Part shown: positions 2,739 through 27,288 of the stretch, piece after piece | Numbering within the stretch: position 1 is the stretch's first letter | How the letters are laid out: each line of letters opens with the position of its first letter | IMG/VR virus record: IMGVR_UViG_2917393062_000005 | Coordinates: 1-36,279 of that record | Reading direction: 5' to 3' (one strand) | Source: a virus | Taxonomy: Duplodnaviria; Heunggongvirae; Uroviricota; Caudoviricetes | Length of the DNA: 36,279 bases | The notes under the pieces: model-generated | The model's input: the letters and a program-made list of their open reading frames with translations, nothing else | Told to the model about the DNA's origin: nothing | Databases searched by the model: none | Program-made: the position numbers and the translations under genes

Positions 2739-2999
2739 TTAATTCTGAGATAAAGGCAAACTCATCTGATTGTTTCCCCTGTGTGAGGCTGGCAGCTCAT
2801 GCCACGGGATACCTTCTGATGAGTGAACGCCGGAGGCGTGTTTCGATGTGAATTTATGGAAAGCTTCCAGTGTTGAGAAGCATACGCCGCATTCCAGGTT
2901 GTTACACTGGTAATACTTTTGCCGCACGGTGTTTGAATCATTTTCCGGACGACTGGTGCGGATACGGGCAGATGCGCCACAAAGCGGACAACGGAACAT
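2739..2999 (-). CDS. ogr: Late-gene transcriptional activator, zinc finger (P2 Ogr / 186 B family)
   Basis: MFRCPLCGASARIRTSR...YYQCNNLECGVCF matches the Ogr pattern MFHCPLC...HQCQNVNC recalled from P2. Confidence 0.85.
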   Translation of the reverse strand: MFRCPLCGASARIRTSRPENDSNTVRQKYYQCNNLECGVCFSTLEAFHKFTSKHASGVHSSEGIPWHELPASHRGNNQMSLPLSQN

Positions 3000-3041
3000 A
3001 GCGACCTCCCTTAACGTGGTGCTGTCGCTATTCTAAGTTCC

Positions 3042-4172
3042 TCACTCTGTTTCCGCTATCCATTCCGGGATTTTTGCCTCAAGCTCAAGCTGTGTGGTAA
3101 AGCCGCTGTTATCAATGGTGTGCTCGGCTTTTGCAATAATCCAGTCCTGATTATCAATCTCGCTTTTAAATCCTGTTACCGTGCCATGCATTTCGGGGTA
3201 GAGTTCTGCGCGTCCACGTGCCAGTGTGATGGAGAATGATGCGGCTCCGCGTTGTAACTGCTGCCACTTTGCCGCCGCTGCGCGTCTTGCTGCCTGCTCG
3301 TTCTGATAAGTCTTGCGTAACACAAACACATTGCCTTCCGCGCCTTCCATATAATCACCTTCACGGCTGCTGCTTTTCTCCTTTTTGGGTTTTGGCGGTT
3401 TGCGGCGTTTCACGCTGACTTTTTTCTTTTTCCCGTAATTAAGATCAAGCCAGTAGGCGCGTACCCCCGTATACGCCTCGCGGTCAGCAATACGGAACTG
3501 ATGGCGATCGCCGCTGCTGCGTGTAATGGCGAACGAGGGCAACGGCTGGCCCTGTGCGTTCACGCCACCACCTGGCATGATGAATAACAGATTGCCGCTT
3601 TTTACCGTGGTGATTGCGCCCAGCATTTCCGCCATGCGCGTAAGGAAGGACATGTCGCTTTCTTCGGTCTGGTCGGCGTGGTCGATTTCGATATCCATCA
3701 GCATTTCGCTGATTTGTGGTTTCAGACCATACCGATGAGCGATGGCGGATACCACACGCTCAAGGGTCACATCATGCCATGACACCTCACGTTTAACGTT
3801 AAATTCATCCCGAAAATCTGCGCTTCTGGCTGAAACAGTCAGCCTGTCCGGCGGTCCTTCGTGAGCGATTTCATCAACAATGTAAGTGCCTTTTTCTGTC
3901 AGCGGTTCTCCTTTCCAGCCAATGAGAACCGTCAGGCGCGCGCCCCGTGGCGGTAGCTGCAACTGACCATCCGCATCATCCAGCGTGATGGTGAGCTGGT
4001 CCGCTTCAAATCCCCGGTTGTCGGTCAGTGACAGACTCATCAGGCGCTCTGCCACGCCGGACAGCGTTTCCCCCTCCGCGAGAATATCAAAATCCGGCAT
4101 TTTCACGGGGTCTGTGCTCTGACTGAGCAATTGCATGGTGGTGTCGATCATCTTTCCCTCCCTGTGTGGCAT
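3042..4172 (-). CDS. D: Tail protein D (late control gene D)
   Basis: LMSLSLTDNRGFEADQL, FLTRMAE, lysine-rich basic stretch and SGFTTQLELE all match P2 gpD as recalled. True start may be the downstream Met (MIDTT...). Confidence 0.9.
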   Translation of the reverse strand: MPHREGKMIDTTMQLLSQSTDPVKMPDFDILAEGETLSGVAERLMSLSLTDNRGFEADQLTITLDDADGQLQLPPRGARLTVLIGWKGEPLTEKGTYIVDEIAHEGPPDRLTVSARSADFRDEFNVKREVSWHDVTLERVVSAIAHRYGLKPQISEMLMDIEIDHADQTEESDMSFLTRMAEMLGAITTVKSGNLLFIMPGGGVNAQGQPLPSFAITRSSGDRHQFRIADREAYTGVRAYWLDLNYGKKKKVSVKRRKPPKPKKEKSSSREGDYMEGAEGNVFVLRKTYQNEQAARRAAAAKWQQLQRGAASFSITLARGRAELYPEMHGTVTGFKSEIDNQDWIIAKAEHTIDNSGFTTQLELEAKIPEWIAETE

Positions 4173-4307
4173 GGTCGCATGTGCGTGCGGAGGGGGTTAC
4201 TGCTTTTTGTTGTCGCCGTGGCGGGAGAACGGCGCAGGGGTGAGATTACGCGCGTGGTGGGTGATGATTGTTGCCGAATCATTTAACGGATACAAGGGGC
4301 TGAAGCT
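4173..4307. promoter_or_regulatory. Divergent intergenic region between D (minus) and FI (plus), presumed late promoters
   Basis: 136-bp gap between divergently oriented late genes. I could not find a clean TGT-N12-ACA Ogr-type dyad by eye. Confidence 0.3.
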
Positions 4308-5492
4308 ATGAGTGAAACTCGTTTTCATGGTGCCCGTGTTACGGAAAGTACCGACTTGGTAACAGCGATTAATGATGTTGATTCCAGTGTTATCGGTATC
4401 GTGGCAACGGCGGATGATGCGGATGCGGAGCTGTTCCCGCTGAACAAGCCCACACTGCTGACCCGCGTCAATGACGTGCTGGGAAAATGCGGAACAACGG
4501 GGACGCTTTATCGTGCGCTTAAGGCCATCGCAGACCAGGTGAGCACAAAGGTGATCGTCGTTCGCGTGGCTGAACACAAAGAAGAAGACGGAAAGACGCA
4601 GGATCAACTGGTTATCGGTGGTTCTGAGGATGACGGCAGCTATACGGGGATGTATGCGCTGCTTGTTGCAGAGCAGGATGAAAGCATCGGATACCGTCCG
4701 CGTATTCTGGCCGCGCCGGAGCTGGACACGGAGGCGGTAACAAAATCCCTGTGCGTGATTGCGGGTAAACTGCGCGCGTTTGTGTATGCCTCATGTCACG
4801 GCTGTAACACGATGGCTGAGGCGATTACCTACCGCCAGAAATTCAACGAACGTGAGGTGATGCTCTTATGGCCGGACTTCATCGCCTACAACCCGAAAAG
4901 TGGCAAAAACGAAACGTTCCCCGCGCCTGCCTATGCGTGCGGCCTTCGTGCGTACATTGACCATGAGCAGGGCTGGCACAAATCGCTGTCCAACGTTCCG
5001 GTTAAAAATGTGCTGGGGATGTCCAGGCATGTGTTCTGGTCGTTGCAGGCCGAAGACAGTGATGCCAACAGCCTCAACAACAAAGAAATCACGACCATTA
5101 TTCGTCGCAACGGGTTCCGCTTCTGGGGCAACCGCACACCGGAAACGAACGCCTACATCTTTGAGGTGTATACCCGAACCGCACAGGTGCTGGCTGATTC
5201 AATTGCGGAAGCGCAGTTTGAAACCATCGACAGTCCACTGACGCCTGCGAACGTGAAAGATGTTATCAGTGCCATCAGGGCAAAACTGGATTCACTGGTT
5301 ACTGCCGGGAAACTGATTGGCGCGGAGTGCTGGTATGACGTGGTGGATAATAGCACCACGGATTTACGTCAGGGGCGTGTGCGTATTCGCTACAAATATA
5401 CGCCCGTTCCGCCACTGGAAGACATGGAGCTTTACCAGACGTTTACTGATGAATACTTTGAACCCGCATTTGCGGTGCTGGGAGGTGCCTGA
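4308..5492 (+). CDS. FI: Contractile tail sheath protein FI
   Basis: 394 aa; AELFPLNKP, GFRFWGNRT and YKYTPVPPLE motifs match P2 FI. Confidence 0.93.
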   Translation: MSETRFHGARVTESTDLVTAINDVDSSVIGIVATADDADAELFPLNKPTLLTRVNDVLGKCGTTGTLYRALKAIADQVSTKVIVVRVAEHKEEDGKTQDQLVIGGSEDDGSYTGMYALLVAEQDESIGYRPRILAAPELDTEAVTKSLCVIAGKLRAFVYASCHGCNTMAEAITYRQKFNEREVMLLWPDFIAYNPKSGKNETFPAPAYACGLRAYIDHEQGWHKSLSNVPVKNVLGMSRHVFWSLQAEDSDANSLNNKEITTIIRRNGFRFWGNRTPETNAYIFEVYTRTAQVLADSIAEAQFETIDSPLTPANVKDVISAIRAKLDSLVTAGKLIGAECWYDVVDNSTTDLRQGRVRIRYKYTPVPPLEDMELYQTFTDEYFEPAFAVLGGA

Positions 5493-6004
5493 TGGCTGTG
5501 CCAAAACATCTTCGCTTTTTTACGCTGTTTGTGGATGGTGAAAACGAAGTGGGTAAGGTGACGTCCGTCACTCTGCCTAAGCTGACGCGCAAAACCGACA
5601 GCTACCGGGGGGGCGGCATGATGGGTGCGGTGAGTATTGATCTCGGTCTGGACGACTCCGCGCTTGATGCGAGCTTTGTCATGGGGGGCGCAGTTCGTGA
5701 GCTGTTCCTTAAGTATGGCGGCACGATTGACGGCACGCTGCTGCGTTTTGCGGGTGAATACTACACCGATGCAGAAAGCGACCTGTATGAAGTCGAAATG
5801 CGCGGACGTGTGACGGAAATTGATATGGGGGAAGCCAAACAGGGCGAAGCCACATCACACACTTACGCCATTAAAAACACCTACTACAAGCTGAGTGTTA
5901 ACGATCGCCCGTTGTGGGAGATTGACCTGCTGAACTTCATTTACCGGAAGGACGGCAAGGACATTGTGCCCGATCGCATCCGTTCCGCGCTTGGGCTTGG
6001 CTGA
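5492..6004 (+). CDS. FII: Tail tube protein FII
   Basis: 170 aa starting MAVPKHLRFFTLFVDGE; start overlaps the FI stop (ATGA-type coupling). Confidence 0.9.
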   Translation: MAVPKHLRFFTLFVDGENEVGKVTSVTLPKLTRKTDSYRGGGMMGAVSIDLGLDDSALDASFVMGGAVRELFLKYGGTIDGTLLRFAGEYYTDAESDLYEVEMRGRVTEIDMGEAKQGEATSHTYAIKNTYYKLSVNDRPLWEIDLLNFIYRKDGKDIVPDRIRSALGLG

Positions 6005-6058
6005 TAAGTAATATGCAGGCGGCGCAGTGCGTCGCCTCTGACTGAAAGGAGTTTTCTG

Positions 6059-6424
6059 ATGAAAGAGACGAAAAACATCGATACCGAAAACACGGTCGTT
6101 GCTGAAACAGCGAAAGAAACCAGTGAGCGTGGCGTAAAACTTACCCAACCAATTGAGCGAGGCGGCGAAAAAATCACGTATGTGGAGATCACCGGAGCTA
6201 TTGAGCAGGCTGGATCTCTGCGAGATTTGTCGCTGTCTGATGTGCTGAATCTGAAAGCGGAATCCATGTTTACGCTGCTGTCACGCGTGACATCACCGCG
6301 ACTGGATGAAGTGACGATCAAAAAAATGGCATCCCGTGACTTTATTCAGTTATGTGTGGTTGCCGTAAATTTTTTGAGCGGTGCGGACTCTGGCGGGAAG
6401 AACGAACAGGCGACGGAAGCCTGA
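6059..6424 (+). CDS. E: Tail assembly chaperone E (zero-frame product)
   Basis: Position between FII and T; contains the slippery heptamer; paired with an overlapping -1-frame ORF. Confidence 0.8.
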   Translation: MKETKNIDTENTVVAETAKETSERGVKLTQPIERGGEKITYVEITGAIEQAGSLRDLSLSDVLNLKAESMFTLLSRVTSPRLDEVTIKKMASRDFIQLCVVAVNFLSGADSGGKNEQATEA

Positions 6425-6588
6425 TCACGGTTGTGTGCTTTGAGCACATAGAAGACTTTGTGGCAGATATTGCCGTTATTTTTAACTGGTCGCCCGCCGA
6501 AATCTTCATGATGACGCCCGGCGAAGTGGTTAGCTGGCGTGAGCGGGCGGCACTTCGCAGCGGGAGTGTAGACAATGAAGACTCTTGA
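6059..6588 (+). CDS. E+E': E+E' frameshift fusion tail chaperone (E to 6376, then -1 frame to 6588)
   Basis: Two overlapping ORFs in frames differing by -1 joined at the slippery site; the E' end overlaps the T start. Confidence 0.7.
6370..6376 (+). promoter_or_regulatory. Programmed -1 ribosomal frameshift site TTTTTTG (E to E+E')
   Basis: T TTT TTG in the E frame; a -1 slip enters the 6352-6588 ORF frame (FFERCGLW...). Same heptamer and gene context as P2 E/E'. Confidence 0.8.
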
Positions 6589-9382
6589 TATCCGGGTCGC
6601 TTTCAGCGCCGTTGACAGGCTGACCCGGCCTGCCGAAAACGCCCGCCGCCTGATGGGGCAGTTTGGTGACTCCATCCAGCGAACGCAGGGGGCGATCAAA
6701 AATCTCGAGCGTCAGGCGCGTTCATTTGAGCGCGCCCGCGACGCTGTCAGTAAAGCGGATGCGGGTATCGTGAAAGCACGACGCCAGCTTAACGCCCTTA
6801 ATCAGTTACAACGCACGGGTACAGTGCTCAGCGAAAAACAACAAAAGCTGATGCAGCAGTTAAGCACCCGGCTTGAACGCCTGAATGAATCGCGCACACG
6901 GGAAATTCAGAAAATGCGGGAGCTTGGCGGAGAGCTGAAACGCCACGGCATTTCCCTGACAGGCAGCGATAACACCATCCAGCAGGCCATCAGACGCACC
7001 GAACAGTACAACAACCAGCTTGAACGCGAACGACAGGCGCTTGCGCGTGTAACGCGGGCGCGTGAGCAGTATTCACGCGCGCAGGAAACAGCGGGAAAAC
7101 TGAAAACGGGTGGTGCGCTGGCAACTGGTGCGGCAGCGGCTGGCGGCTATGCTGCCGGGCGTTTTTTGCAGCCCGCTATCGGATTCGGGAAAGAGATGTC
7201 CCGTGTGCAGGCGCTGACGCGAATTGACCAGAACAGCCCGCAGTTTAAGGCGCTGCGTGAGCAGGCGCTAAAGCTCGGCTCTGAAACGCAGTTTACTGCG
7301 AGTGATGCCGCCAGTGGGCAGGCATTTCTTGCTATGGCTGGCTTCACACCGCAGGCCATTCAGGCTGCGCTTCCCGGCGTGCTGAGCATGGCAACGGCTG
7401 GCGGTATGGACCTTGGCGAGACGGCGGATATTGGCTCAAATATCCTGACGCAGTTCGGTCTCTCTGCTGACCAGATGGACCGGGTCGGCGACACACTTAC
7501 TGCGGCGTTTACCCGTACTAACACCGACCTTCGCGCGCTGGGCGAAACCATGAAATATGCAGGTCCGGTGGCGGGTAAGCTGGGAATATCGCTGGAGCAG
7601 GCCGCAGCGATGGCGGGCGTGCTGGCGAATATGGGCATCAGAGGGAGTGATGCCGGGACGGCAATGCGTGCCAGTCTGGCTCGTCTGGCATCACCGCCAA
7701 AGGCGGCGGCAGAAGCTCTGAAAGAGCTGGGCGTGTCCGTCTCGGATGCCGGGGGCAAAATGCGCCCGATGGAAGATCTGCTGGCTGACCTTTATAAAGC
7801 TACCCGCAAATACGGGGAAGTTGACCGGGTATCCTTCTTTAAGGACATCGCCGGGGAAGAGGCTTTCACATCGTTTATGGCACTCGTTGATGCGGCGGGT
7901 GACGGTTCCTTACCCAAACTGAGAAAAGAACTTGAGGGCGCACGCGGTGAGGCTGAACGCACGGCAAAGGTTATGGCCGACAACCTTGATGGCGACCTGA
8001 AAAATCTCGACAGCGCATGGGAAGGTCTTCGTATTCGCATCAGTGATCTGGTTGACGGTCCGCTGCGTTCTGTCACGCAGTGGCTAACACGGGTGGTCTC
8101 AAAGGTGACGGCACTGGCGCAGGCCCATCCTGTACTGACGCGCCAGCTACTGATAGCAGGCGGTGCGTTGCTGGCAATGACTGCAACGATTGGCTCGTTG
8201 TCGCTGGTTATGGGGGTGCTTTACGGGAAGCTGGCCACCTTGCGTCTTGGTTTTGACATTCTTACCCGGTCAATGAATGTCGTCAGGGTGTTGCCTGCGC
8301 TGTGGGGAATGGTGACGGGTTCCGTTTCCTTACTGGGAGGCGCGATCGGGGCGTTGTTCAGTCCGGTTGGTCTTATCGTGGCTGCGCTTGCCGGAGCTGC
8401 CGTTCTTATCTGGAAATACTGGGATCCCATCAGGGCATTTTTTGCCGGGGTGTTCAGCGGGATTATGGAAAGGCTGACCCCGTTGCGCGAAACCTTTGAA
8501 CGGTTTGGTCCTGTTTTTGACGCAATCGGAAGCGGGATCGGCCAGGTGTTTAACTGGTTTAAATCGCTGCTGTCACCGATGGAGTCCAGCAAGGAAACGC
8601 TGGATAAATGTACCAGTGCTGGCGAGGTATTCGGTAACGTTCTTGGTGGCGCGTTACAGCTTGTTCTGACGCCTGCAAAAATGTTGCTGGATACGCTGGC
8701 GTGGATACTTGAAAAACTCGGTGTGCTTCCGGATGAAGCGGAAAGGGCGAGAAAGAAAATCGAAGACGCACAGCGTGCGGCCATTCTTCAGGACAAGGTT
8801 GCTCTGTTTCAGGGAGACATTGCGAAAATCAATCCGCCGAAGTCTGCGGAAAATGGCAATGGCACCGGAGGCGATAAACCCAAAGACAACAAACCGCTCA
8901 CAGACAGCAATACCGGTACGCTACGCAGACTCAGCAAGATTGCTGATAACACAGGTAAGCTGGTTGATGAGACGAAAAAACGCATTGGCCCCGGCGATAT
9001 TGTCTTTAAGAACCTGCCCCGCGCACTTGCTGTTCGTGGGGAGTGGCAGGCGCGGAAGATTGCGCAGGTCAGTAAGCCTGCCCCCGCAATTAAGATCACA
9101 CCCGTGGTCCCGGCTCCGCTGCCTCCGGCGCTGGTTCCTGTTGTTGCGGCCAGCTCCCGCCCGGTGGCGGAGGCCATACGATCGCCAGTGGCGTCAGTTC
9201 CTGCAACTTCCCGTAACCGGGAGTCTGTTGCCTCCGGATTTGGCGGTGAAATTCATGTTCATCTGCATAACGTTGTTACACAGAATCCCCGCGAACTGGC
9301 GAAACTGGTCGGTGAAATGGTCAGGGCAGAAATGGAACGGCGCGCCCGTGCCGGACGTGGCAGTTTTTACGATAAAGATTGA
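6575..9382 (+). CDS. T: Tail tape measure protein T
   Basis: 935 aa, coiled-coil N-terminal part, Gly/Ala-rich hydrophobic central region; sits between E/E' and U. Confidence 0.9.
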   Translation: MKTLDIRVAFSAVDRLTRPAENARRLMGQFGDSIQRTQGAIKNLERQARSFERARDAVSKADAGIVKARRQLNALNQLQRTGTVLSEKQQKLMQQLSTRLERLNESRTREIQKMRELGGELKRHGISLTGSDNTIQQAIRRTEQYNNQLERERQALARVTRAREQYSRAQETAGKLKTGGALATGAAAAGGYAAGRFLQPAIGFGKEMSRVQALTRIDQNSPQFKALREQALKLGSETQFTASDAASGQAFLAMAGFTPQAIQAALPGVLSMATAGGMDLGETADIGSNILTQFGLSADQMDRVGDTLTAAFTRTNTDLRALGETMKYAGPVAGKLGISLEQAAAMAGVLANMGIRGSDAGTAMRASLARLASPPKAAAEALKELGVSVSDAGGKMRPMEDLLADLYKATRKYGEVDRVSFFKDIAGEEAFTSFMALVDAAGDGSLPKLRKELEGARGEAERTAKVMADNLDGDLKNLDSAWEGLRIRISDLVDGPLRSVTQWLTRVVSKVTALAQAHPVLTRQLLIAGGALLAMTATIGSLSLVMGVLYGKLATLRLGFDILTRSMNVVRVLPALWGMVTGSVSLLGGAIGALFSPVGLIVAALAGAAVLIWKYWDPIRAFFAGVFSGIMERLTPLRETFERFGPVFDAIGSGIGQVFNWFKSLLSPMESSKETLDKCTSAGEVFGNVLGGALQLVLTPAKMLLDTLAWILEKLGVLPDEAERARKKIEDAQRAAILQDKVALFQGDIAKINPPKSAENGNGTGGDKPKDNKPLTDSNTGTLRRLSKIADNTGKLVDETKKRIGPGDIVFKNLPRALAVRGEWQARKIAQVSKPAPAIKITPVVPAPLPPALVPVVAASSRPVAEAIRSPVASVPATSRNRESVASGFGGEIHVHLHNVVTQNPRELAKLVGEMVRAEMERRARAGRGSFYDKD

Positions 9383-9388
9383 GGAGTC

Positions 9389-9883
9389 ATGGCCATGATG
9401 ATGATCTACGGCATGTTTGTTTTTGAGCTGCGCACATTGCCGCATCAGCAGTTACAGCAAAACAAAAGCTGGCGGCATGTGAAAAATGAACGCGTTAACC
9501 GTTCAGCAAGCTGGCAGTATATCGGTGCAGGTGATGATCGCATCGTTCTTTCTGGTGTGCTTTATCCTGAAATCACAGGTGGCGAAGTGTCCCTGTCGCT
9601 GCTGACCACACAGGCGTATACCGGACGCCCCTGGCCTCTGATTGATGGCGTCGGGCAGATTTACGGCATGTATGTTCTGACTGACATAAGTACGACCCGC
9701 TCCGAGTTTGATCGCTACGGCAAGGCGAAAAAGATAGAGTTTTCACTGACCCTTGAACGCTGTGATGAGGATTTGCGGGAGCGCCTGCAATCCTCATCGT
9801 TCAGCGATATGCTGACTGGCTTCAAAGATAAGGTAACCTCGTCTTTAAATAGCGTGGCTAACTCAGTTCATAGTTTATTTTAA
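9389..9883 (+). CDS. U: Tail protein U
   Basis: 164 aa immediately after T; size and position match P2 gpU. Confidence 0.8.
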   Translation: MAMMMIYGMFVFELRTLPHQQLQQNKSWRHVKNERVNRSASWQYIGAGDDRIVLSGVLYPEITGGEVSLSLLTTQAYTGRPWPLIDGVGQIYGMYVLTDISTTRSEFDRYGKAKKIEFSLTLERCDEDLRERLQSSSFSDMLTGFKDKVTSSLNSVANSVHSLF

Positions 9884-9904
9884 AGAGTTTAATTTCTTGT
9901 GATA

Positions 9905-9930
9905 AATGGTCCGTAACATATCGGACCATT
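9905..9930. repeat. Perfect 9-bp-stem palindrome AATGGTCCG-N8-CGGACCATT downstream of U
   Basis: Seen in sequence; no T-run follows, so it is either a protein-binding palindrome or a weak terminator. Confidence 0.3.
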
Positions 9931-10064
9931 CAAGCACATTACATGTTGGTTCCATCTTATTGAATGCATCCAGTAGCCACAATATAATTTCTTGAGAGTT
10001 CATTACACACCCAGTCAGATTAACACCCCATTACATTGTAAGTGATAATGCAGAGATTAAATTC

Positions 10065-10607
10065 ATGGATATAAAAACATTAAAGGAGTGTATAAAAATA
10101 GAAGTTATAGGCGGAAACCATGAGTTTTCATGGAGAAAAGCTTTAACTCGCACCAGACGCAATAGGCGAAAACACTTTATGTTTTGGTGGCGAGTGGCCA
10201 GCTATCTATACAGCAGAGGAGGGTTCATGCGCTGGGTGGGCAAACGCATCGGAGCAAACCTTCATCGCGATTATAATGTTGAGATTCCTTTAACAGTGAG
10301 TATAGGGCCAGGCTTAGATATTGCTCACTTATCAGGTATTGTTATTACAGAAAACTGTGTGATAGGGAGAAATCTACATATAAAGCAAGGTGTTACTATT
10401 GGTCTAAGAACCCCTTCCAATGAGGCAATGATTACTATTGGAGATAATGTTGATATAGGTTGCAATTCATCTATCCTTGGTGGGCAAGTTAATATCGGTG
10501 ATAACGTTACGATAGGTGCTCATGCTCTGGTAACAAAATCTATTCCTTCCAACTCAATATATATAAACGAAATAACTCCTGTTATAAGACAAAAAAAGGC
10601 GCAGTAA
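10065..10607 (+). CDS. Hexapeptide-repeat (left-handed beta-helix) acyl/acetyltransferase, moron gene
   Basis: Repeated [LIV]-G-x-x-x-x hexapeptides (IGRNLHI, VTIGL, ITIGDNVDIG, VNIGDNVTIG), WcaF/CysE-like. Markedly AT-rich compared with flanking tail genes. True start may be internal. Confidence 0.75.
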   Translation: MDIKTLKECIKIEVIGGNHEFSWRKALTRTRRNRRKHFMFWWRVASYLYSRGGFMRWVGKRIGANLHRDYNVEIPLTVSIGPGLDIAHLSGIVITENCVIGRNLHIKQGVTIGLRTPSNEAMITIGDNVDIGCNSSILGGQVNIGDNVTIGAHALVTKSIPSNSIYINEITPVIRQKKAQ

Positions 10608-10619
10608 GCGCCTTTTTTC
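10590..10619. terminator. Bidirectional rho-independent terminator shared by the acyltransferase (plus) and G (minus)
   Basis: AAAAAAA-GGCGC-AGTAA-GCGCC-TTTTTT: hairpin flanked by an A-run and a T-run between convergent stop codons. Confidence 0.75.
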
Positions 10620-11193
10620 ATGGTTGCTCTGGCCAATCAATATCGGTGGTATTTTCTGGTTGAATACGATTCACCAATACACGGTACTTCTTCCAGCGTG
10701 TCAAGTTTATCTTTTCGTCTTCTGTCGCTATATCTAAATCAACAGCGTCCTGCAAAGTAGCAATGATCTTACTCGCATAAGCGATTTGTTCTCTCTTCTG
10801 AGATTCGGCGGCTCTGACAAGTGCATCACGCTCTGCATTCTCATCATTCACCCACGCATTTCCGTTCCATTTCTGATAATTCCCATCGGGGAAAATGGTT
10901 GTCACGTCTGGGGGTAATGCACCAAGTTCAGAAATATAAATGGCCGTTCCCGTTTTCGTTTCGTAGACAGTCTCTCCGCGATGGTCTTCCATCAACTCCC
11001 ATTTCATTTCATTTGCATTGAAAACGGCAGCAAAACCCGCCGGAATATCAGGCGGCGCAATATCTGTACTGTTTGCAGGCAGACCTGTATACGGTGGAAT
11101 ATATGCGTCACTTTCACCAATAAATTCGTTTGTACCATCGAGATAATTAAATACGCGAATAATTTGTGCTTCTGCACTCATTTTAAAACCCAT
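10618..11193 (-). CDS. G: Tail fiber assembly chaperone G
   Basis: 191 aa directly downstream of H with overlapping start/stop; GxxxYxxxxGxxP-type N-terminus typical of tail fiber assembly proteins. Confidence 0.8.
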
Positions 11194-13811
11194 TATGCAA
11201 GCCTCACAATATAGTTAAATGCGATGTTTTTGACGGTGTTTTCGGTATTGCCAGTAGCATTTACGGTAATGGAATGCCCGTGTGAGCCAATAGCAACAGT
11301 GTGTGAATGTGCACCAATACCAACAGTATGGTTATGTGCTCCAATGTCGACTGTATGTGCATGATTGCCTGATGAACTTGTAGTCGTAGCACCTTTATCA
11401 CTTCGCGGAACACCATAATCTGCACCGCCTGATTGCACGCTCACAGCAAAACCGACGGTATGTGTATGATTGCCAGAAGTATTGGTTGATTTTGTGCCGT
11501 GGTTAAACGTACTGACTGTTTTTGTCCCGTAATCAAATGAACTGGTCGTTTTCGTCCCTAAGTCCGTATTTGACGCACTGGCGCTGTGAGTATGCGATTT
11601 AATCCCGTCCTGTTCCTGTGACAATACGGCACGCCCACTGGCGGGTTTTCCCTTGATTGTCCAGCCGCGCATATCAGGAATAACACCTGAAGGATAGGCT
11701 ATAGCCAGTTTCGGATATGCAGCCTTATCGAACGTCTGCCCCTGCATAATTGCATAGCCCGCAGGTGGTGTATCTGATGGCCACGGCAACGGAACACCTG
11801 GCGGAAACGCTTCGATATTTGCCGACCCGTCAAATTTTACGCCGTTAATTGTCCTTGCCGTTTTCAGCTTTGTCGCTGTAGCAGCATTGCCGGACAGTTC
11901 GCCTGAAAGACCACCGCTGAATGTCTGTTTCGCCGCCCATGTCTGAGCTTCGTCGATAATTGGCACACGTCTTGTTGTGATCGTGCGACTTCCCGGATTT
12001 CCTGAAATACGCACCATAAAAAAGCGGTAATTCGCTTTACTTACAGTGCTGCGCCATACATGCATTGAGCGCCCCGTACCGGAATCATCACTCGGACCAA
12101 CTGCGATGTTTATCAGGTTGCCATCAATGACGCCCCAGTCCATGCCGTCGGGAATGTTGGTCATGTTATCAAGCCGAACGGTTATCAGACTGCCCGGCAC
12201 AAAGTCGTAGGTCTGCCAGTCCAGGCTGGTGAGTTTTGCCACTGCGCCACCGATGCCCAGATTCAGAGGCAACGAAAAGGAGTTATATACTTCTCGCCAT
12301 TCGGTCCATTTGCTCCCGGCGTAGACGCGCTCAAAAGTGCGCCCCTGTGTGGTTTCTGATTTCCCTGTGGTTGTGTAACGCTGCCAGACAGACACACCAT
12401 CAAAACGTCTGATTACTTCCAGTATCCCAAGCAGTGTTGCTCCAGCGGTATCCTGCATTGGACCGTTTGTTGCCTTCCCTGTAACGCTGTAAATGCCAGG
12501 TGAAGTCAGATCATTCAAATCCCCTTCGTAATAACGACACTCTGACTGATGGCCCACTCTTGACCACGGTTCCCACTGTGGATTCTCTGCATTCCATGTA
12601 GCAGAAAGGCAGCGAACATATACATTCCCCCGGCGGGTCGTGTAACGTTGCATGCGTGAGTACCCACCACCTTCAAGAACTTCAAGGAGTCCCTGACCAT
12701 AACTTCCTTCTTCTGGATAGTTGCGGTCAAATGAAGCGATAGAACCACTACTGTTTCGCCATAAACCAAGATGCTCTGCGCCTCCGAGCGTGTTCAGGTC
12801 AATGGTTGTACTCAGAGGGCGTGTTGCTGACTGAATCTGTCGCCAGTAGCTCCACGGACCGTCAGAGCCATTCCAGGAACCAGCAAGGTTGCGCATATAA
12901 ACATTGCCAGTTCTGGTGGTATAACGCTGCATTCCTACAAAATTACCGCCATTGAATACCTCAAGAACACCGACGGCACCGTCTTCCGGGAAATGTTTCT
13001 CCAGTGTTGCGTTGGAGGATGTGGATTTATACCAGACCCCCACATAAGCCTTAACAGGACCAAACGTATTCAGATCAGCATCAAGCGGCATTTCGCCATT
13101 GTTTTTCATAAACGTCAGGCTGGTAACGCCAACATTGTCCAGAAAAGCGCCCTTATCTGGAATATCGTCACCGTTCTGGTCTTTCTGCAGACGTTTCTCA
13201 GCATTGTCATAGGCTGCTTTTACTGCCTTTGGCGTTGCCGCCAGCTCTTCACTGGTGCTGTTTGTTGCACTGCTTAACTGGGTAAAACCTTTTTCTGTCA
13301 GCGTGGCGTCAGGATGGCGGCGGGACTGCTCATGCTCTGCGATTTTGTCATCGACGTAATCCTGCGTCGCCATCACTGTGCTGGCATCAATACTCAGCTC
13401 AACGGACGCCACATTGCTGAGAATAATAACCATGCGGCAGGTCTGCGCACGCCCGGAGCCTTCAGCCAGTTCAGGCTTATAGCTTTCCGCCATGTTGGCG
13501 ACCGCAATCAGTGTTCCGGCATCGTCATACAGACCAAGCTCACGCATCCAGAAGCCGCCCACTTCTGGCGGAACAACCAGTTCAGCCACGATATAGTTTT
13601 TATTCTTATTATCCACGCTGACTTTATTCAGGGCGTGACGCCAGACCTCATGCACCAGTTTCGTCTGACCGGCATCCGGCACCGGCAATTTGCCATTACC
13701 GTCACCCACGGCCATTGCAGACAGGGTTACTTTTTTCCCGCCGGGGACAGTGGCGGCTGCCAGCTTTGCGGCTCCGGCAGTAGTGATAACGGTTTTAAAT
13801 TTCGTGCTCAT
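11193..13811 (-). CDS. H: Tail fiber protein H
   Basis: 872 aa; N-terminal about 200 aa match P2 gpH closely ([63 protein letters not shown]). C-terminus carries HxH repeats. Confidence 0.93.
11222..11420 (-). repeat. Imperfect tandem repeats encoding HxH motifs at the H C-terminus
   Basis: Protein repeats NHTHTV, NHAHTV, AHNHTV, AHSHTV, SHGHSI, with corresponding repeated nucleotide blocks. Confidence 0.6.
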
Positions 13812-13821
13812 TGTTTCTCAC

Positions 13822-14382
13822 TTATCCGGGATAAACAGTAATAACATCACCATCACAGACCACACCGCCTGTATACAGATAGCCGGGAATGTCCTGGATA
13901 ATGTTCAGACCGATAAGGTGGCGACTTGCGGGTTTGGCATCGGCAATCAGCCGTTCCATTTCCAGATACATTTCCTCGGTCACACCACTGTCCAGCGTGC
14001 CAACATCAACCTTGAATGTTCCGGGTTCGCCGTCGAACTCCCACCACTCAGACACGCGAATGAGGTATCCCAGCGGTTCAATGGCTCGTCGCAGGGCGCT
14101 GATGGTTCCTTTGTGTCGGTGTGTCAACCATGCATCACGAATCACCTGTCGCTTTGTCTCTTCTGGCCAGTTGCGATCCCAGCGGTCAACGGAAAACGCC
14201 CAGGCGAGATAAGGCAGCAGATGTACCGGGCAGGTGTCCGGCGACCACAGCGTGTTGAGGTCTACCGGAATGTCTGTAATGCGTGTCCCGACGGCTTCGG
14301 CACAACGCATGAAATTGCTGGCTGATGGCGGTAACAGTGAATTACTCATTACGCCCACCTTCGCTGATGGTGAATGACTCAC
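13822..14382 (-). CDS. I: Baseplate protein I
   Basis: WSPDTCPVHLLPYLAWAFSVDRWD, ERLIADAKPASRHLIGLNI and GDVITVYPG match P2 gpI. Confidence 0.9.
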   Translation of the reverse strand: MSHSPSAKVGVMSNSLLPPSASNFMRCAEAVGTRITDIPVDLNTLWSPDTCPVHLLPYLAWAFSVDRWDRNWPEETKRQVIRDAWLTHRHKGTISALRRAIEPLGYLIRVSEWWEFDGEPGTFKVDVGTLDSGVTEEMYLEMERLIADAKPASRHLIGLNIIQDIPGYLYTGGVVCDGDVITVYPG

Positions 14383-15237
14383 AGCGCGCCGCCTGTATGT
14401 CGCTGATGGCCATATTCTGTGTGGGTTCGATTATCTCCACGCGTTGCACACCGTGCACATGCAGTGCGGCAGCAATGGCGGACAACGCCACATCCTGACC
14501 GATAAGCCCCTGCTCAGCCAGCCACTTCCTGAACGACGATTCAGCCGCAGCCAGAATAGGTTCGGATTCCGGGCCGGGGTAGAAGTACAGTTTTGCATTC
14601 AGCCGCCATGTCACGATTCTGGCGCTCTGTACGGTCAGGCGGTCGGCCACCGGGCGGGTATCCTCTGCATTCAGAACGGCGCGAACGGTATTAAGCAACG
14701 CCTCCGTTGCTGTGCCGTCGCCCTCAGTGGACAGAATGGAAACCGTCACGTTGGCCGGAGACGGGCTGATGGCCCGCGCGTCGCGTACCAGACCGCTGGC
14801 GCTGCGTGCAAAATACTCGTATGCACCTGACGGGCCAGCAACACTCAGACCGTCATACGCCCGTTGCGCCCGCAGTCTCAGTGAGGTGTCACTTTCCATC
14901 ACCGCGTCGGTGGTATCCGTTGCCGGAGTGATAACCAGGCGCTTTGTGTTCATATTGCCCGCAAGGTTGTCCAGGTCTGTCCCGGCGCTGTGGCTTAGCA
15001 TGCAGCGCGTGCACCCTCATTGACCCGCTGGCGTAACAGCATTTCACGAAACGCTGTTGTCTGGGCGATAACGTTCAGGGGCTCCGATTCCAGCTCCAGC
15101 GCGGCGGAGACGGCTTCACGCTGTTCGGCGGGATAAGCCGCAATCATCATGGCCTTTGTATCAGCCAGAATTGCCTCAAAGTCAGGCTCCGCGATGATGG
15201 CGGGTTCCGGTAACTGGGAAAGGTCAACGGCAGGCAT
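14342..15237 (-). pseudogene. J: Baseplate protein J interrupted by a frameshift (80-aa N-terminal ORF plus 219-aa C-terminal ORF)
   Basis: Both pieces match P2 gpJ (N: LPEPAIIAEPDFE...RQRVNE; C: TKRLVITPA...VTVQSA...ALHVHGVQRVE), but the first stops at TAA (14995-14997) and the second starts in a different frame at 14999-15001. Confidence 0.8.
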
Positions 15238-15240
15238 GAT

Positions 15241-15591
15241 TTACTCCCTCAGCGTGATGGTTAATTCAACATTCTGCATGGTCTGCATGACAGTGCCCGA
15301 CAGCGTCACCCCGGCGCGGCCTCCTGCCTTCCAGACAACGTCGATGGCGTCCAGGGCAATGCGGGGTTCCCATCGCGTCAGTGCAATCACGGCAGCACTC
15401 ATGCATTGCAGACGCGTGGTGTTATTCATGGGCTCGTCAATCAAATCAGGCACAAGGCTGCCATATTCCCGTCGCATAACCCGGCTTGCCAGCGGGGTGA
15501 TCAGGATGTCCCTGACTGACTGTTTCAGGTGCTCCATATCGTTCAGGTTTCCCGTCCCGTCCGGATTCATTCCTGTGTAGCGGGTTGTCAC
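15241..15591 (-). CDS. W: Baseplate protein W
   Basis: 116 aa; RVMRREYGSL and WEPR motifs match P2 gpW. Confidence 0.85.
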   Translation of the reverse strand: MTTRYTGMNPDGTGNLNDMEHLKQSVRDILITPLASRVMRREYGSLVPDLIDEPMNNTTRLQCMSAAVIALTRWEPRIALDAIDVVWKAGGRAGVTLSGTVMQTMQNVELTITLRE

Positions 15592-16169
15592 TGCGGGCCT
15601 CCTGTCGAATCGCTGCCACCTTTAACGCCACCGTGCTTATGCGTATGCACTGTGATGCCGTTTGAGGTGAAATCGCCGCCGCTGTGCGTGATATTGCCGC
15701 TCATCGTTCCCCCTTTTGTGACGTCAAGCGTCGCTGTTCTCAGAAGGTCTGTGCATTCCACGACAGGCGTATCCAGTGTCACGCTGACGGATGCCTGCAG
15801 GGTGGCTGTTTTCATGCCGCTGGCGCTCAGTGCGCCTGCGTCCGCGTCGTAGCGGAACACCGCGCCGTCCGGCGCGCTGACCACGATTTCTTTCAGGCTT
15901 TTGCCGGGGGCCGGATTGGCATCACTCCACAGGCTGCCAATTATCATGGCGGTTTCCGGGTTGCCGCCTATGCAGGCAATTACCACCTGTTCGCCTGGTG
16001 ATGGCGGCAGCCACACATTGAAGGCTCCCGCGCGCGTGGTGTTCCAGCGCAGCCAGCCTGTTTCCAGTTCGCCGCTGCGAACGCGCACGCGCCAGGACTT
16101 CTCGTCAACTTCAGAGATGATCCCGGTGCGGATGATATTGCTCAGCAGTCGCATGAGTTCTGCGCTCAC
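15588..16169 (-). CDS. V: Baseplate spike protein V
   Basis: 193 aa in the conserved S-V-W order with overlapping stops/starts; Gly/Thr-rich C-terminus. Confidence 0.8.
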   Translation of the reverse strand: MSAELMRLLSNIIRTGIISEVDEKSWRVRVRSGELETGWLRWNTTRAGAFNVWLPPSPGEQVVIACIGGNPETAMIIGSLWSDANPAPGKSLKEIVVSAPDGAVFRYDADAGALSASGMKTATLQASVSVTLDTPVVECTDLLRTATLDVTKGGTMSGNITHSGGDFTSNGITVHTHKHGGVKGGSDSTGGPQ

Positions 16170-16810
16170 CGTACAGCCTCCGCAATCCGGCCCAGCACCG
16201 TGTTATAAATCAGGCGTTCATCTGCCTGACTGATGCCCAACAGCTCACGTACCGGGTAATCGGTGAAAATGCCCGGCGCAACCTGATCGCGCTCACCGAA
16301 CTGATGAACGCGGGCAATACGTGCGGCCACGCCGCTGTAACCCACCGTCACACCGGAAGCATCTGCACGGGCTTTCAGGTAGCGGGCGGTGCGCAGTTTT
16401 ACGAACATGGGGACGCGCTTTGTGCTGTCCTGGTTGATGCGCCGGGTGCGTATTTCCAGAAAACGGTCGATGTCATCCCGGTAAAACGTGCGGATATTGT
16501 TTTTATCCTCATCCCACCCGGTAATGGTTCGCCCGTATTTCCCTGTGTCGTGATGCCAGTTTTTCAGCGTGCGTGCTTCGTTATTCCAGATAAAGCGAAT
16601 GCGTTCCTGTATCCGGGTTACGCGGCGTCTGCGTGGTGTCCATGCGGTCCCGTCCGGCGCTTTCTGTGACCGGATGCGCGCCTGCTGGGCGCGGCGTAAA
16701 TCCTGTGCCAGCTTTCTGGCGATGTTATTGATGGCCTGCTGATTCAGGCTGTCGCGGATGGCCTCAAAGGTTTCATCCACGCGGGTGAATGCCTTATCCA
16801 TCGCTTTCAC
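16166..16810 (-). CDS. S: Tail completion / virion morphogenesis protein (gpS-like, longer than P2 S)
   Basis: RIARVHQFGERD matches the P2 gpS motif RIARVHQYGLKD; sits between R and V. Confidence 0.75.
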   Translation of the reverse strand: MKAMDKAFTRVDETFEAIRDSLNQQAINNIARKLAQDLRRAQQARIRSQKAPDGTAWTPRRRRVTRIQERIRFIWNNEARTLKNWHHDTGKYGRTITGWDEDKNNIRTFYRDDIDRFLEIRTRRINQDSTKRVPMFVKLRTARYLKARADASGVTVGYSGVAARIARVHQFGERDQVAPGIFTDYPVRELLGISQADERLIYNTVLGRIAEAVR

Positions 16811-22072: not shown

Positions 22073-22226
22073 AGTTTTTGCCCCTCTGACTGGTTCTTCA
22101 GTCATGATGGCAAAGCGTAACAGGCTGATACAAAGGGCTTTTGTTGTAAGAAAACGGCCAGAACAGGGGGTTAAGGAGAACAGTTTCGCGCGCGGGTAAT
22201 CTTCCTGTAATTACTCAGGGGGAGCA
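22073..22226. promoter_or_regulatory. Divergent late promoter region between O (minus) and P (plus)
   Basis: Gene arrangement as in P2 (Q-P leftward, O-N-M-L rightward). Individual promoter elements not resolved. Confidence 0.4.
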
Positions 22227-25074: not shown

Positions 25075-25329
25075 GACTCTCCAGCTCCTGTATCAGTCAG
25101 ATAGTTTCACGACGCTTTCCAGTTTATCGCCACCATCGACGGTCAGACTCTTACGCAATCCCACCGCGTTGACTGCATGTTCTCGCCGTCTCAGTGCGAT
25201 TTTGACGGCCTTACCTTTCACCCCATCAAATCAAAAGCCCTCACGTCTTTTTCACGTTCAGCGTGAGAAATACAGCCATTCTGTTGTATCTCTGCGACAT
25301 CGTTCAGGGAATGCTATTTACCCCCTGAA

Positions 25330-26012: not shown

Positions 26013-26324
26013 TTATTCGGGAAATAACGCCCGGATATTTCCGGCCATCTGACTGGTTATCTGTGCGGTTGATACTGGCTGTGACGCGGGGCATTCTGTC
26101 CTGGTTTGTGTCACTGATAACGCCTCATCGTCAGCCCATGCAGCCAGTCGGTAAGCCTCTGCCGGATTCATTTTCAGAAGAGCCAGCCCGGCCAGAAAAG
26201 CCACGCGTTGGCCGCTTTTGCGGGCTTCTGGTGTAAGGCTGTCCAGCCAGGCGCATGCTTCGCTTTCGTTCTTGACGGCCGCAGGCTTCAGATAGAAACT
26301 TATCCGTCTGGTTGGTGTCGTCAT
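26013..26324 (-). CDS. parR: ParR/StbB-like centromere-binding partition adaptor
   Basis: About 104 aa from MTTPTRRISFYLKP; AAGGAG RBS; immediately downstream of parM; resembles R1 ParR (FKLNPD..., RAALTAGLALY, ...LFP) as recalled. Confidence 0.65.
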   Translation of the reverse strand: MTTPTRRISFYLKPAAVKNESEACAWLDSLTPEARKSGQRVAFLAGLALLKMNPAEAYRLAAWADDEALSVTQTRTECPASQPVSTAQITSQMAGNIRALFPE

Positions 26325-26328
26325 TGGT

Positions 26329-27288
26329 TTACTCCTTGTCCATTGCGTACAGCCCATTAACCAGAGCAAACTGTGGCACCCCGTCCGCGATGAAAGTCGC
26401 ATTAACTCCGCAGGCTTCGCGGATAGCGGGTGCCACAATCTCCGCCCCTCCACCGACAACCATCACCCGCCCGTAACCCGAAAAACCCGCCAGCGCGCGG
26501 ATCACGCGTTGTTTCAGTGTTTCTTCCTTTTCACGAATAACCGCCATCAGGCTGGCGTAATGCGCGTCATTGTGGATGTGCTGGCGCAGCCAGGCTTCAT
26601 CATGGCGATGTTCGATAATGGTATTGGCGATGTGGTGACTGGTGCGCATACCGTTAGTGGCCATCACCGACAGTACGGCATCGGCCATCAGAGAAACGCC
26701 TACGTGTGGATCGCAAAACACCTGGCTGATACCTGCCAGTTGCCCCTGAACCTTTGCCACATCCAGCGTGGTTCCGCCCAAATCCACAATCAGCAGGGAT
26801 TCAAACGGACTCATGTCAGCCAGTGCCTTAAAGCCAGCCGGAATGGATTCAGGCATAACCCGCACGTTACGGATAGTGAATGCTTCGCCGTTCTGGTACT
26901 CCACCGGGCGCATAACGTTCGCTTTTTTGCGGTTGATGTTGGCCATGTCCGGCTGTGCGTTTGTGTCGAAATACTCGCTCAGTGGCAGGGTGACAACCAC
27001 ATCCACCTCCTGTGGCGTGATGCCTGATTTGACCAGCGCGTGATGAATGGCAATGACATTTACATCGCTGTATTGGTATTGCGTGTCGGTTGTCTGGACA
27101 AAGCGATCGCTGACCGGATCAAAACCATAGCGCACTCCATCAAGCATGTAGTTCGCGGGCTGCATGCCACCGAACGGCGCAGACCATTCCGACTTGAAGC
27201 TGTTCGGGCTGATGGCGTTGCGGCGTTCGCCGTTCTCAGTCCATGCCAGCTTGATGTTGGTGGAGCCGTCGTCGATACAAATTTTCAT
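26329..27288 (-). CDS. parM: ParM/StbA actin-like partition ATPase
   Basis: 319 aa with the ParM motif series: IDDGSTNIKL, ISPNSF, QYSDVNV, HHAL, QPDMANI.RKKAN, VMPESIPAG, DLGGTTLD, GISQ, GVSL, VGGGAE, LVNGLY. Confidence 0.85.
   Translation of the reverse strand: MKICIDDGSTNIKLAWTENGERRNAISPNSFKSEWSAPFGGMQPANYMLDGVRYGFDPVSDRFVQTTDTQYQYSDVNVIAIHHALVKSGITPQEVDVVVTLPLSEYFDTNAQPDMANINRKKANVMRPVEYQNGEAFTIRNVRVMPESIPAGFKALADMSPFESLLIVDLGGTTLDVAKVQGQLAGISQVFCDPHVGVSLMADAVLSVMATNGMRTSHHIANTIIEHRHDEAWLRQHIHNDAHYASLMAVIREKEETLKQRVIRALAGFSGYGRVMVVGGGAEIVAPAIREACGVNATFIADGVPQFALVNGLYAMDKE

Follow-up and report, generated by a model that had tools for sequence, protein, structure and literature searches.

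The stretch of DNA analyzed here (the window; 36,279 nt, IMG/VR record IMGVR_UViG_2917393062_000005, Caudoviricetes) harbors a nearly complete P2-family prophage, as deduced from the open reading frame (ORF) map, Pfam scans, and tblastn searches with all P2 proteins. All members of the P2 late structural set (Q, P, O, N, M, L, X, R, S, V, W, J, I, H, G, FI, FII, E, T, U, and D) were matched with identities between 26% and 84% in tblastn, and the Pfam domains agree with these assignments. In P2-family phages, the tail chaperone pair E/E' arises through a −1 frameshift; in the window, the Phage_P2_GpE domain is encoded in the frame overlapping E (6352-6588). The subject of the analysis is the sheath, tube, and tape measure gene block FI-FII-E/E'-T-U, located between D and G (Table 1). 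An initial annotation had claimed that D and the late-gene activator gene ogr are on the minus strand and that FI to U, encoded on the opposite strand, point away from D and towards G. The ORF list, the Pfam matches, and the tblastn results bear out this description: FI to U have plus orientation, the minus strand carries D, G, H, and V to J, and U is not located next to D, so that the canonical P2 order is absent. The genes H and G represent the end of a long minus-strand run of late genes, which converges on the FI-U block. In the P2 annotation, FI-FII-E-T-U-D-ogr is co-directional with V-W-J-I-H-G, in agreement with what had been stated for the P2 F operon, and because FI-U-D and V-G have one direction there, the FI-U block of the window is inverted relative to P2. 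Being a matter of gene order, this finding does not raise the question of a chance occurrence.

The D ORF remains open up to an ATG at position 4172. Because the predicted D-side −10 element overlaps this first ATG, the true start of D is most likely the ATG at 4151, which is preceded by a Shine-Dalgarno sequence (AGGGAGGGA); the annotation of D in Escherichia phage P88 begins at the ATG equivalent to 4151. The divergent gap between D and FI is thus present as described initially, although its length is not 136 bp, but 135 nt from ATG 4172 to the FI ATG at 4308, or 156 nt if D starts at the probable ATG 4151. A 72-aa ORF at 2762-2980 was considered as ogr and rejected, since it lies in a different frame and has no Pfam match.

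Table 1. Genes and features of the inverted block, its control regions, and the remaining prophage (positions refer to the window; a dot denotes features without a strand).
Feature	Position	Strand	Assignment and support
ogr	2739-2999	-	Late-gene activator, Ogr/Delta zinc finger, 86 aa; PF04606 (E=5e-14); 42% identical to P2 Ogr
D	3042-4151 (ORF open to ATG 4172)	-	Tail/baseplate hub gpD; Pfam Phage_GPD; 49% identical to P2 D
Divergent D/FI control region	4152-4307	.	Architecture conserved over 56 distinct gaps
Predicted D-side −10	4171-4176	-	GACCAT (minus-strand reading); predicted start near 4164
Single Ogr-type dyad	4211-4228	.	TGT-N12-AGA, centre 4219.5; extended TGTTGT-N12-AGAACG, 4208-4231
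Predicted pF −10	4263-4268	+	GATGAT; predicted start near 4275
FI	4308-5492	+	Tail sheath; Pfam sheath domains; 46% identical to P2 FI
FII	5492-6004	+	Tail tube; Pfam Phage_tube (E=7.5e-47); 42% identical to P2 FII
E	6059-6424	+	Tail assembly chaperone pair with E'; 32% identical to P2 E
E'	6352-6588	+	Frame overlapping E; Pfam Phage_P2_GpE
T	6575-9382	+	Tape measure, 935 aa; Pfam PhageMin_Tail; 32% identical to P2 T
U	9389-9883	+	Tail protein; Pfam Phage_P2_GpU (E=3.4e-40); 47% identical to P2 U
Hairpin after U	9905-9930	+	Region 9884-9945 folds with -18.2 kcal/mol (z=-4.4); without T-run, not a canonical intrinsic terminator
Moron	10065-10607	+	Hexapeptide-repeat O-acetyltransferase, CysE/WcaB/EpsC-like, 180 aa; Pfam Hexapep
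Bidirectional intrinsic terminator	10592-10618	.	-15.9 kcal/mol (plus strand, z=-4.6) and -18.0 kcal/mol (minus strand, z=-6.1); stem flanked by A-run and T-run
G	10618-11193	-	Tail fibre assembly; Pfam Caudo_TAP; P2 G match
H	11193-13811	-	Tail fibre; Pfam Phage_tail_fib; P2 H match
O-N-M-L-X, lysis genes, R-S-V-W-J-I-H-G	22105 down to 10618	-	Late genes
P/O gap dyad	22145-22162	.	TGT-N12-AGA; −10-like TAATCT (P side, 22197-22202) and CATCAT (O side)
Q-P		+	Divergent from O-N-M-L-X
int and C	35-36 kb		Start of the minus-strand reading order, followed by cox early genes, A, and a ParM/StbB-type partition pair

Judged by its nucleotide sequence, the window is a P88-like prophage (genus Xuanwuvirus, family Peduoviridae). 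Comparison with phage records by megablast revealed approximately 95-97% nucleotide identity to P88 and other Xuanwuvirus members over ogr-D-FI-U and most of the late genes, and the identity across 2 kb at the D/FI junction amounted to 97.7%. Within positions 1-24000, between 73% and 82% of the window aligned to Xuanwuvirus records at approximately 95-96%; the product of approximately 70-78% lies at or slightly above the genus level of the International Committee on Taxonomy of Viruses (ICTV), which is set at approximately 70% nucleotide similarity across the genome. In the P88 annotation, H and G are followed by U, T, E', E, FII, and FI in the opposite orientation, after which D is again encoded on the strand of H and G. 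An identical layout of the whole block was found in the annotations of phiT5282H (Novemvirus), SEN5 (Senquatrovirus), and 3LV2017 (Reginaelenavirus), and a more sensitive search also detected the divergent D/FI junction in SEN4, Klebsiella phage ST16-OXA48phi5.4, and Serratia phage KSP20. Among complete Escherichia coli genomes, a 1.2-kb query across D/FI (at least 80% coverage) recovered the contiguous junction in 1356 out of 5426, nearly all matching records being 95-99% identical.

The distribution of the layout was further analyzed by a scan for D loci in one genome per species (GTDB representatives), for which an alignment of five D proteins served as query, and the arrangement of the 80 loci returned was typed by tblastn with V, I, FI, FII, T, U, D, and ogr. 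The inverted layout was assigned to 59 loci and the canonical U-D tandem to 21, with approximately 30 genera of Enterobacterales being represented; as the loci were picked by similarity to the query, the ratio of 59:21 is not a prevalence. Inverted loci originated from Salmonella, Serratia, Erwinia, Pantoea, Enterobacter, Klebsiella, Kosakonia, Pectobacterium, Brenneria, Edwardsiella, Xenorhabdus, Photorhabdus, Providencia, Morganella, Hafnia, Yersinia, and others. Every locus featuring a D protein at least 61% identical to that of the window was inverted, and those with identities between 47% and 54% were canonical. Likewise, two-cluster grouping by the unweighted pair group method with arithmetic mean (UPGMA; identity matrices, unrooted), performed separately for D, located outside the block, and for FI and U, located inside it, yielded for each gene a split that corresponded to the arrangement in 100% of cases. 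The initial annotation had offered two explanations, namely a real lineage-specific rearrangement or an assembly inversion, and considered the layout unremarkable should it be standard in an already described P2-like subgroup. P88, phiT5282H, SEN5, 3LV2017, and the 59 loci support the former explanation, and the layout is indeed standard in such a subgroup (P88; Xuanwuvirus, Novemvirus, Senquatrovirus, and Reginaelenavirus). It is virtually certain that the inverted layout represents a fixed trait typical of this clade.

Regarding the origin of the layout, the canonical order is present in phiCTX, in R-type pyocins, and in Burkholderia phage KS5, for which reason the P2 order is probably ancestral and the inversion probably a single old event. 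The gene order of KS5 has been described previously (PMC3091744).

Since D and U are located on opposite strands, D is no longer co-transcribed with U, as had been proposed; the conserved, promoter-like architecture of the D/FI gap backs this claim. For analysis of this architecture, 56 distinct D/FI gaps with lengths between 122 and 198 nt were taken from the inverted loci. The TGT-N12-A(C/G)A dyad was identified in 52 of the 56. Positional profiles were calculated for hexamers carrying A2 and T6, the two most conserved positions of the −10 element. On the FI side, all 52 dyad-bearing gaps feature such a hexamer with its first position precisely 43.5 nt away from the dyad centre, and on the D side it is found at the mirrored 43.5-nt offset in 47 of them; at any other offset, at most nine of the 52 gaps contain one. 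The hexamers themselves vary among the gaps, including GATTAT, GAATAT, CAACAT, and GATGAT on the FI side and AATCAT, AACTAT, GATCCT, GACGAT, and GACCAT on the D side. Ogr-type promoter elements had been suggested as a search target on both sides of the gap; mirrored −10-like hexamers do occur on both sides, but they share one dyad only. An alternating GC tract was found to be conserved between this dyad and the hexamer on the D side, namely at 4180-4200 (CGCACGCAC in the window) and in the D/FI gaps of loci L008-L064 (CACGCGCGCG), and a similar CGCGCGCG is present on the P side of the P/O gap of the window (22186-22193).

The distance between the dyad and the FI ATG is 88.5 nt in the window, 89.5 nt in its two closest relatives, and commonly 83.5 nt in the clade (range 75.5-89.5 nt), in comparison to approximately 83 nt for P2 pF, the promoter of the F operon, and 79.5-84.5 nt in canonical relatives. 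Because this spacing was kept, pF appears to have moved together with the FI-U block. The late-promoter consensus of P2 is TGT-N12-ACA, a dyad located approximately 55 nt upstream of the transcription start in late promoters of P2-family phages, and in Stenotrophomonas phage Smp131 one dyad was assigned to both divergent promoters (PMC3931495). In the gaps analyzed here, this late-promoter trait is represented by the AGA variant in the P/O and D/FI gaps of the window and by ACA or AGA in 52 of the 56 related gaps, with −10-like hexamers at the expected offset, the transcription starts being predicted only. The P2 record itself contains one activator site (3057-3087) for the divergent promoters pP and pO, with a dyad centre at 3071.5 and starts at 3016 and 3127, each 55.5 nt away.

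These results suggest that a single ancient inversion reversed the FI-FII-E/E'-T-U late operon and its own Ogr-dependent pF with respect to the P2-type order, with break points in the G/FI intergenic region and at the U/D boundary, and that the arrangement was then fixed over a large clade of Enterobacterales P2-family phages. D-ogr would have become a separate unit divergent from FI, and the gap between them would have kept one TGT-N12-A(C/G)A dyad with mirror-image −10-like hexamers 43.5-48.5 nt either side of its centre. According to this proposal, a single Ogr-bound site would drive two divergent late promoters, namely pF, initiating near 4275 on the plus strand, and a D promoter, initiating near 4164 on the minus strand, and D would now be served by the opposite side of this site, as in the pP/pO pair of P2. 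The U/G junction would have become convergent and would serve as a cargo slot. Gene order, distribution, and motif geometry were observed directly, and from these we infer the evolutionary direction and the two-way use of the dyad. The explanation as a whole, comprising the fixed clade trait, the single inversion, and the shared dyad, is assigned a probability of approximately 85%. With regard to its parts, a single derived inversion of an orthologous block is considered highly probable, and a shared Ogr dyad driving both pF and the D promoter is favored with some reservation, on the basis of the conserved geometry and the pP/pO precedent.

Several observations weigh against this explanation. 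The exact dyad pattern is absent in four of the 56 gaps, and the D-side hexamer deviates from the exact offset in five of the 52 dyad-bearing ones. In the window, the D-side GACCAT represents a weak −10 element, and the predicted leader comprises only approximately 13 nt. Moreover, the gap sequences share descent, so that the conservation counts given above overstate independence. The polarity, i.e., the ancestral state of the P2 order, was derived from the outgroup gene order of Burkholderia phages, R-type pyocins, and phiCTX and not from a rooted tree. Finally, for the P88-type lineage, the D promoter and its reliance on Ogr have the status of predictions.

The only live alternative concerns the mechanism. 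It accepts the inversion as real and fixed, but provides D with an independent promoter (for example, of the sigma-70 type or with another activator site), the mirrored hexamer being incidental. The weakness of the D-side hexamer in the window would be in accordance with such a promoter, as would the CGCGCGCG tract conserved clade-wide between the dyad and the D-side hexamer and the fact that ogr of P2 has its own promoter. However, just one dyad is present per gap, the D-side A2/T6 hexamer occupies the exact mirrored offset in nearly all dyad-bearing gaps (47/52), a gap of 122-198 nt is too short for two separate activator-dependent promoters, and late timing is required for D, which in P2 belongs to the essential late tail genes. 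An independent D promoter is therefore regarded as unlikely.

Replacement of the module, in which a sheath-tube-tape-measure cassette from another contractile-tail phage was inserted in the opposite orientation, is far less probable still. P2-family phages are mosaic, and the H/G fibre end of the window is 87% identical to that of a Peduovirus, unlike the remaining genome; in addition, T is longer than its P2 counterpart (935 versus 815 aa) and just 32% identical to it. Nevertheless, FI, FII, E, T, and U are orthologues of the P2 genes, featuring a divergence like that of the head, baseplate, and D genes. The identities to P2 range between 32% and 47% for FI-U and between 26% and 84% for the other late genes, most of which fall between 36% and 55% (tblastn), and because the divergence of FI-U is within the range of the other late genes, the block is orthologous and not foreign. 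Moreover, D outside the block gives the same two-way split as FI and U inside it, and the spacing from the pF dyad to FI was retained.

A programmed switch, i.e., flipping of the FI-U block by a Hin/Gin/Cin-type invertase, is of negligible probability: P88 does encode a DNA invertase along with an alternative fibre cassette at the U/G junction, but this invertase flanks a tail-fibre shufflon and not the FI-U block, the window is devoid of an invertase (the sole ORF at the junction encodes the hexapeptide acetyltransferase), no inverted repeat pairs 4173-4307 with 9884-10617, and only one orientation was detected in the 59 relatives and the 1356 E. coli junctions. The assembly inversion considered initially, with 4173-10617 flipped by misassembly, is equally negligible and was rejected, as only the difference from P2 speaks for it, while the same orientation and contiguous junctions were found in phage isolates of identical layout, in 1356 complete E. 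coli genomes, and in 59 loci of many genera, and there are no flanking inverted repeats to mislead an assembler.

Dyads resembling that of the D/FI gap were also searched for in the remaining window. The loose pattern TGT-N12-A(C/G)A has approximately 30 matches and is uninformative alone; only intergenic dyads with mirrored −10 hexamers were retained. The exact pattern TTGT-N12-AGAAC occurs three times in the window compared to 0.16 expected occurrences, and within the prophage it was found only at the D/FI gap (4210-4230) and at the P/O gap (22144-22164), where the O-side hexamer CATCAT is located 1 nt further from the dyad centre than the mirrored offset. The third copy, at 1070-1090 on the minus strand, was considered as a late promoter for the ORF at 1-993 and rejected, since this ORF represents flk, a gene of the host, and the prophage does not include the site; it was judged to be a chance occurrence, the expected offset being without a −10-like hexamer. 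For a separate pV promoter, no minus-strand dyad of the right geometry was found near S (16166-16810) or V (15588-16169). S and V overlap at 16166-16169, whereas P2 features a terminator, orf30, and pV between these two genes, and O through G may form one long late operon in the P88-like lineage. A perfect TGTTGT...ACA dyad (TGT-N12-ACA) was also noted at 25282-25299 in a non-coding region downstream of Q, near the expected cos site, with no obvious late gene. Considering both gaps, we lean slightly towards the proposal that the inversion made the symmetric dyad of pF a bidirectional late promoter timing FI-U and the detached D(-ogr), with the late program being run mainly from the P/O and D/FI switches.

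At the other end of the block, U and G are not adjacent, but separated by 734 nt (9884-10617). The initial annotation had placed a terminator shared by the FI-U block and G at this junction. A bidirectional intrinsic terminator is indeed present at 10592-10618; however, it is common to G and a moron gene whose ORF had been overlooked. This hairpin was missed by the terminator scanner and confirmed by folding. The terminator contains the stop codon of the moron in its loop and directly adjoins that of G, so that transcripts of FI-U would get to it only via read-through of the moron. The moron resides in a low-GC island (GC 0.41) with sigma-70-like sites at 9960-9988 and 10020-10049, as obtained from a promoter scan, and its matches to NCBIfam models are all under the curated family cut-offs. 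Among phage-encoded proteins, its nearest relatives are annotated as 'serine acetyltransferases' (52-61% identity), one of them being located beside a tail fibre assembly gene; the protein identity to the 'serine acetyltransferase' of ESSI2_ev015 is 61%. A nucleotide search with the moron yielded no match, either in the 80 D loci or among the 5426 complete E. coli genomes. It may represent a conversion gene modifying surface polysaccharides. In the same slot, P88 carries the DNA invertase and the alternative fibre cassette, SEN5 and phiT5282H are empty, and P2 features Z/fun at the equivalent G/FI position; on this basis, the U/G junction is regarded as a cargo site.

The remaining prophage provided further observations. 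A gene encoding ParM (StbA_N/ParM) and a Plasmid_stab_B-like partition gene are located within the prophage at 26013-27288 on the minus strand and are annotated likewise in P88, which suggests a plasmid-like segregation function in the P88-like lineage. The left end of the window consists of the host gene flk (1-993), followed by prophage-end cargo including a DNA methyltransferase gene (1224-2015); according to E. coli annotations, the cargo within 1-2700 also comprises a Com-family regulator and a Hok/Gef toxin. Among 5437 E. coli records matching positions 1-2700, most were just 80-90% identical over the matched part, which is probably flk, and these values indicate that the host may not be a typical E. 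coli. The best match among the D loci (L006, 98%) bears the label Salmonella enterica strain s1. Another locus, L007 (NZ_JBQPOM010000071.1), is labelled Vagococcus sp., a member of the Firmicutes, and contains a P88-type prophage with a D protein 98% identical to that of the window; this label is most likely the result of contamination or assembly mislabelling.

Compared with P88, the baseplate gene J (14342-15237, minus strand) lacks 1 nt at 14995-15003 (GCGC-TGCA versus GCGCCTGCA), which breaks it into two ORFs; this represents either a defective prophage or a sequencing error. The distal tail-fibre module, consisting of G and the C-terminal part of H (10631-14251), is 87-88% identical to that of the canonical-order Peduovirus P24A7b and is unmatched in P88. 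This match demonstrates a mosaic exchange of receptor-binding genes between both gene-order groups.

The inverted layout is present in approximately one quarter of the complete E. coli genomes. In comparisons of prophages with P2, caution is advised against interpreting it as an assembly error or a recent rearrangement. The inversion provides a simple, discrete marker dividing Enterobacterales P2-family phages into two deep groups, and the mirror-symmetric promoter geometry leads to a testable prediction of how D is expressed once it is cut off from the F operon. If this prediction is true, the rearrangement would have been tolerated because the activator site is palindromic, and the inversion would be a clean shared derived trait of a large Peduoviridae clade. 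In the literature searched, which was incomplete and included studies on P88 (PMC5285337), a Citrobacter prophage (PMC6456863), the P2/P4 defence hotspot (PMC13586616), and Burkholderia phages (PMC3091744), an explicit account of the inversion or its promoter consequence was not found.

Compared with known systems, the window most closely resembles the Xuanwuvirus members P88, PhiR44_2, P884B11, 500465-2, and Citrobacter phage phiSM, with which it shares the D/FI gap sequence, the succession and orientation of ogr, D, FI-U, G, and H, and 95-97% identity over most of the late region. P88 differs from it in the cargo at U/G, in the distal H/G module, and in J, in which the window has the 1-nt deletion. 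In Smp131, the late operons are also rearranged while the TGT-N12-ACA promoters were kept (PMC3931495); unlike in the window, members of the V and F operons were exchanged there, and FI-U is not inverted. The P2 F operon, FI-FII-E-E'-T-U-D, consists of the same genes (32-49% protein identity), including the overlapping frames E and E', is accompanied by an Ogr activator, and is preceded by a TGT-N12-ACA-type dyad approximately 83 nt upstream of the FI ATG, but D is the last gene of this operon and overlaps U, whereas it is detached from the inverted FI-U in the window. With respect to the promoters, the D/FI and P/O gaps of the window correspond to pP/pO of P2, with one dyad midway between the divergent genes and −10-like hexamers at approximately ±43.5-48.5 nt in the window gaps; the starts are mapped for pP/pO (record annotation) and predicted for D/FI, and the right half-site is AGA in the Xuanwuvirus copies instead of ACA. 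The arrangement as such is already known, being standard in a classified group and visible in public records for years, and the bidirectional D/FI promoter proposed here is a modest, testable addition to it rather than a discovery.

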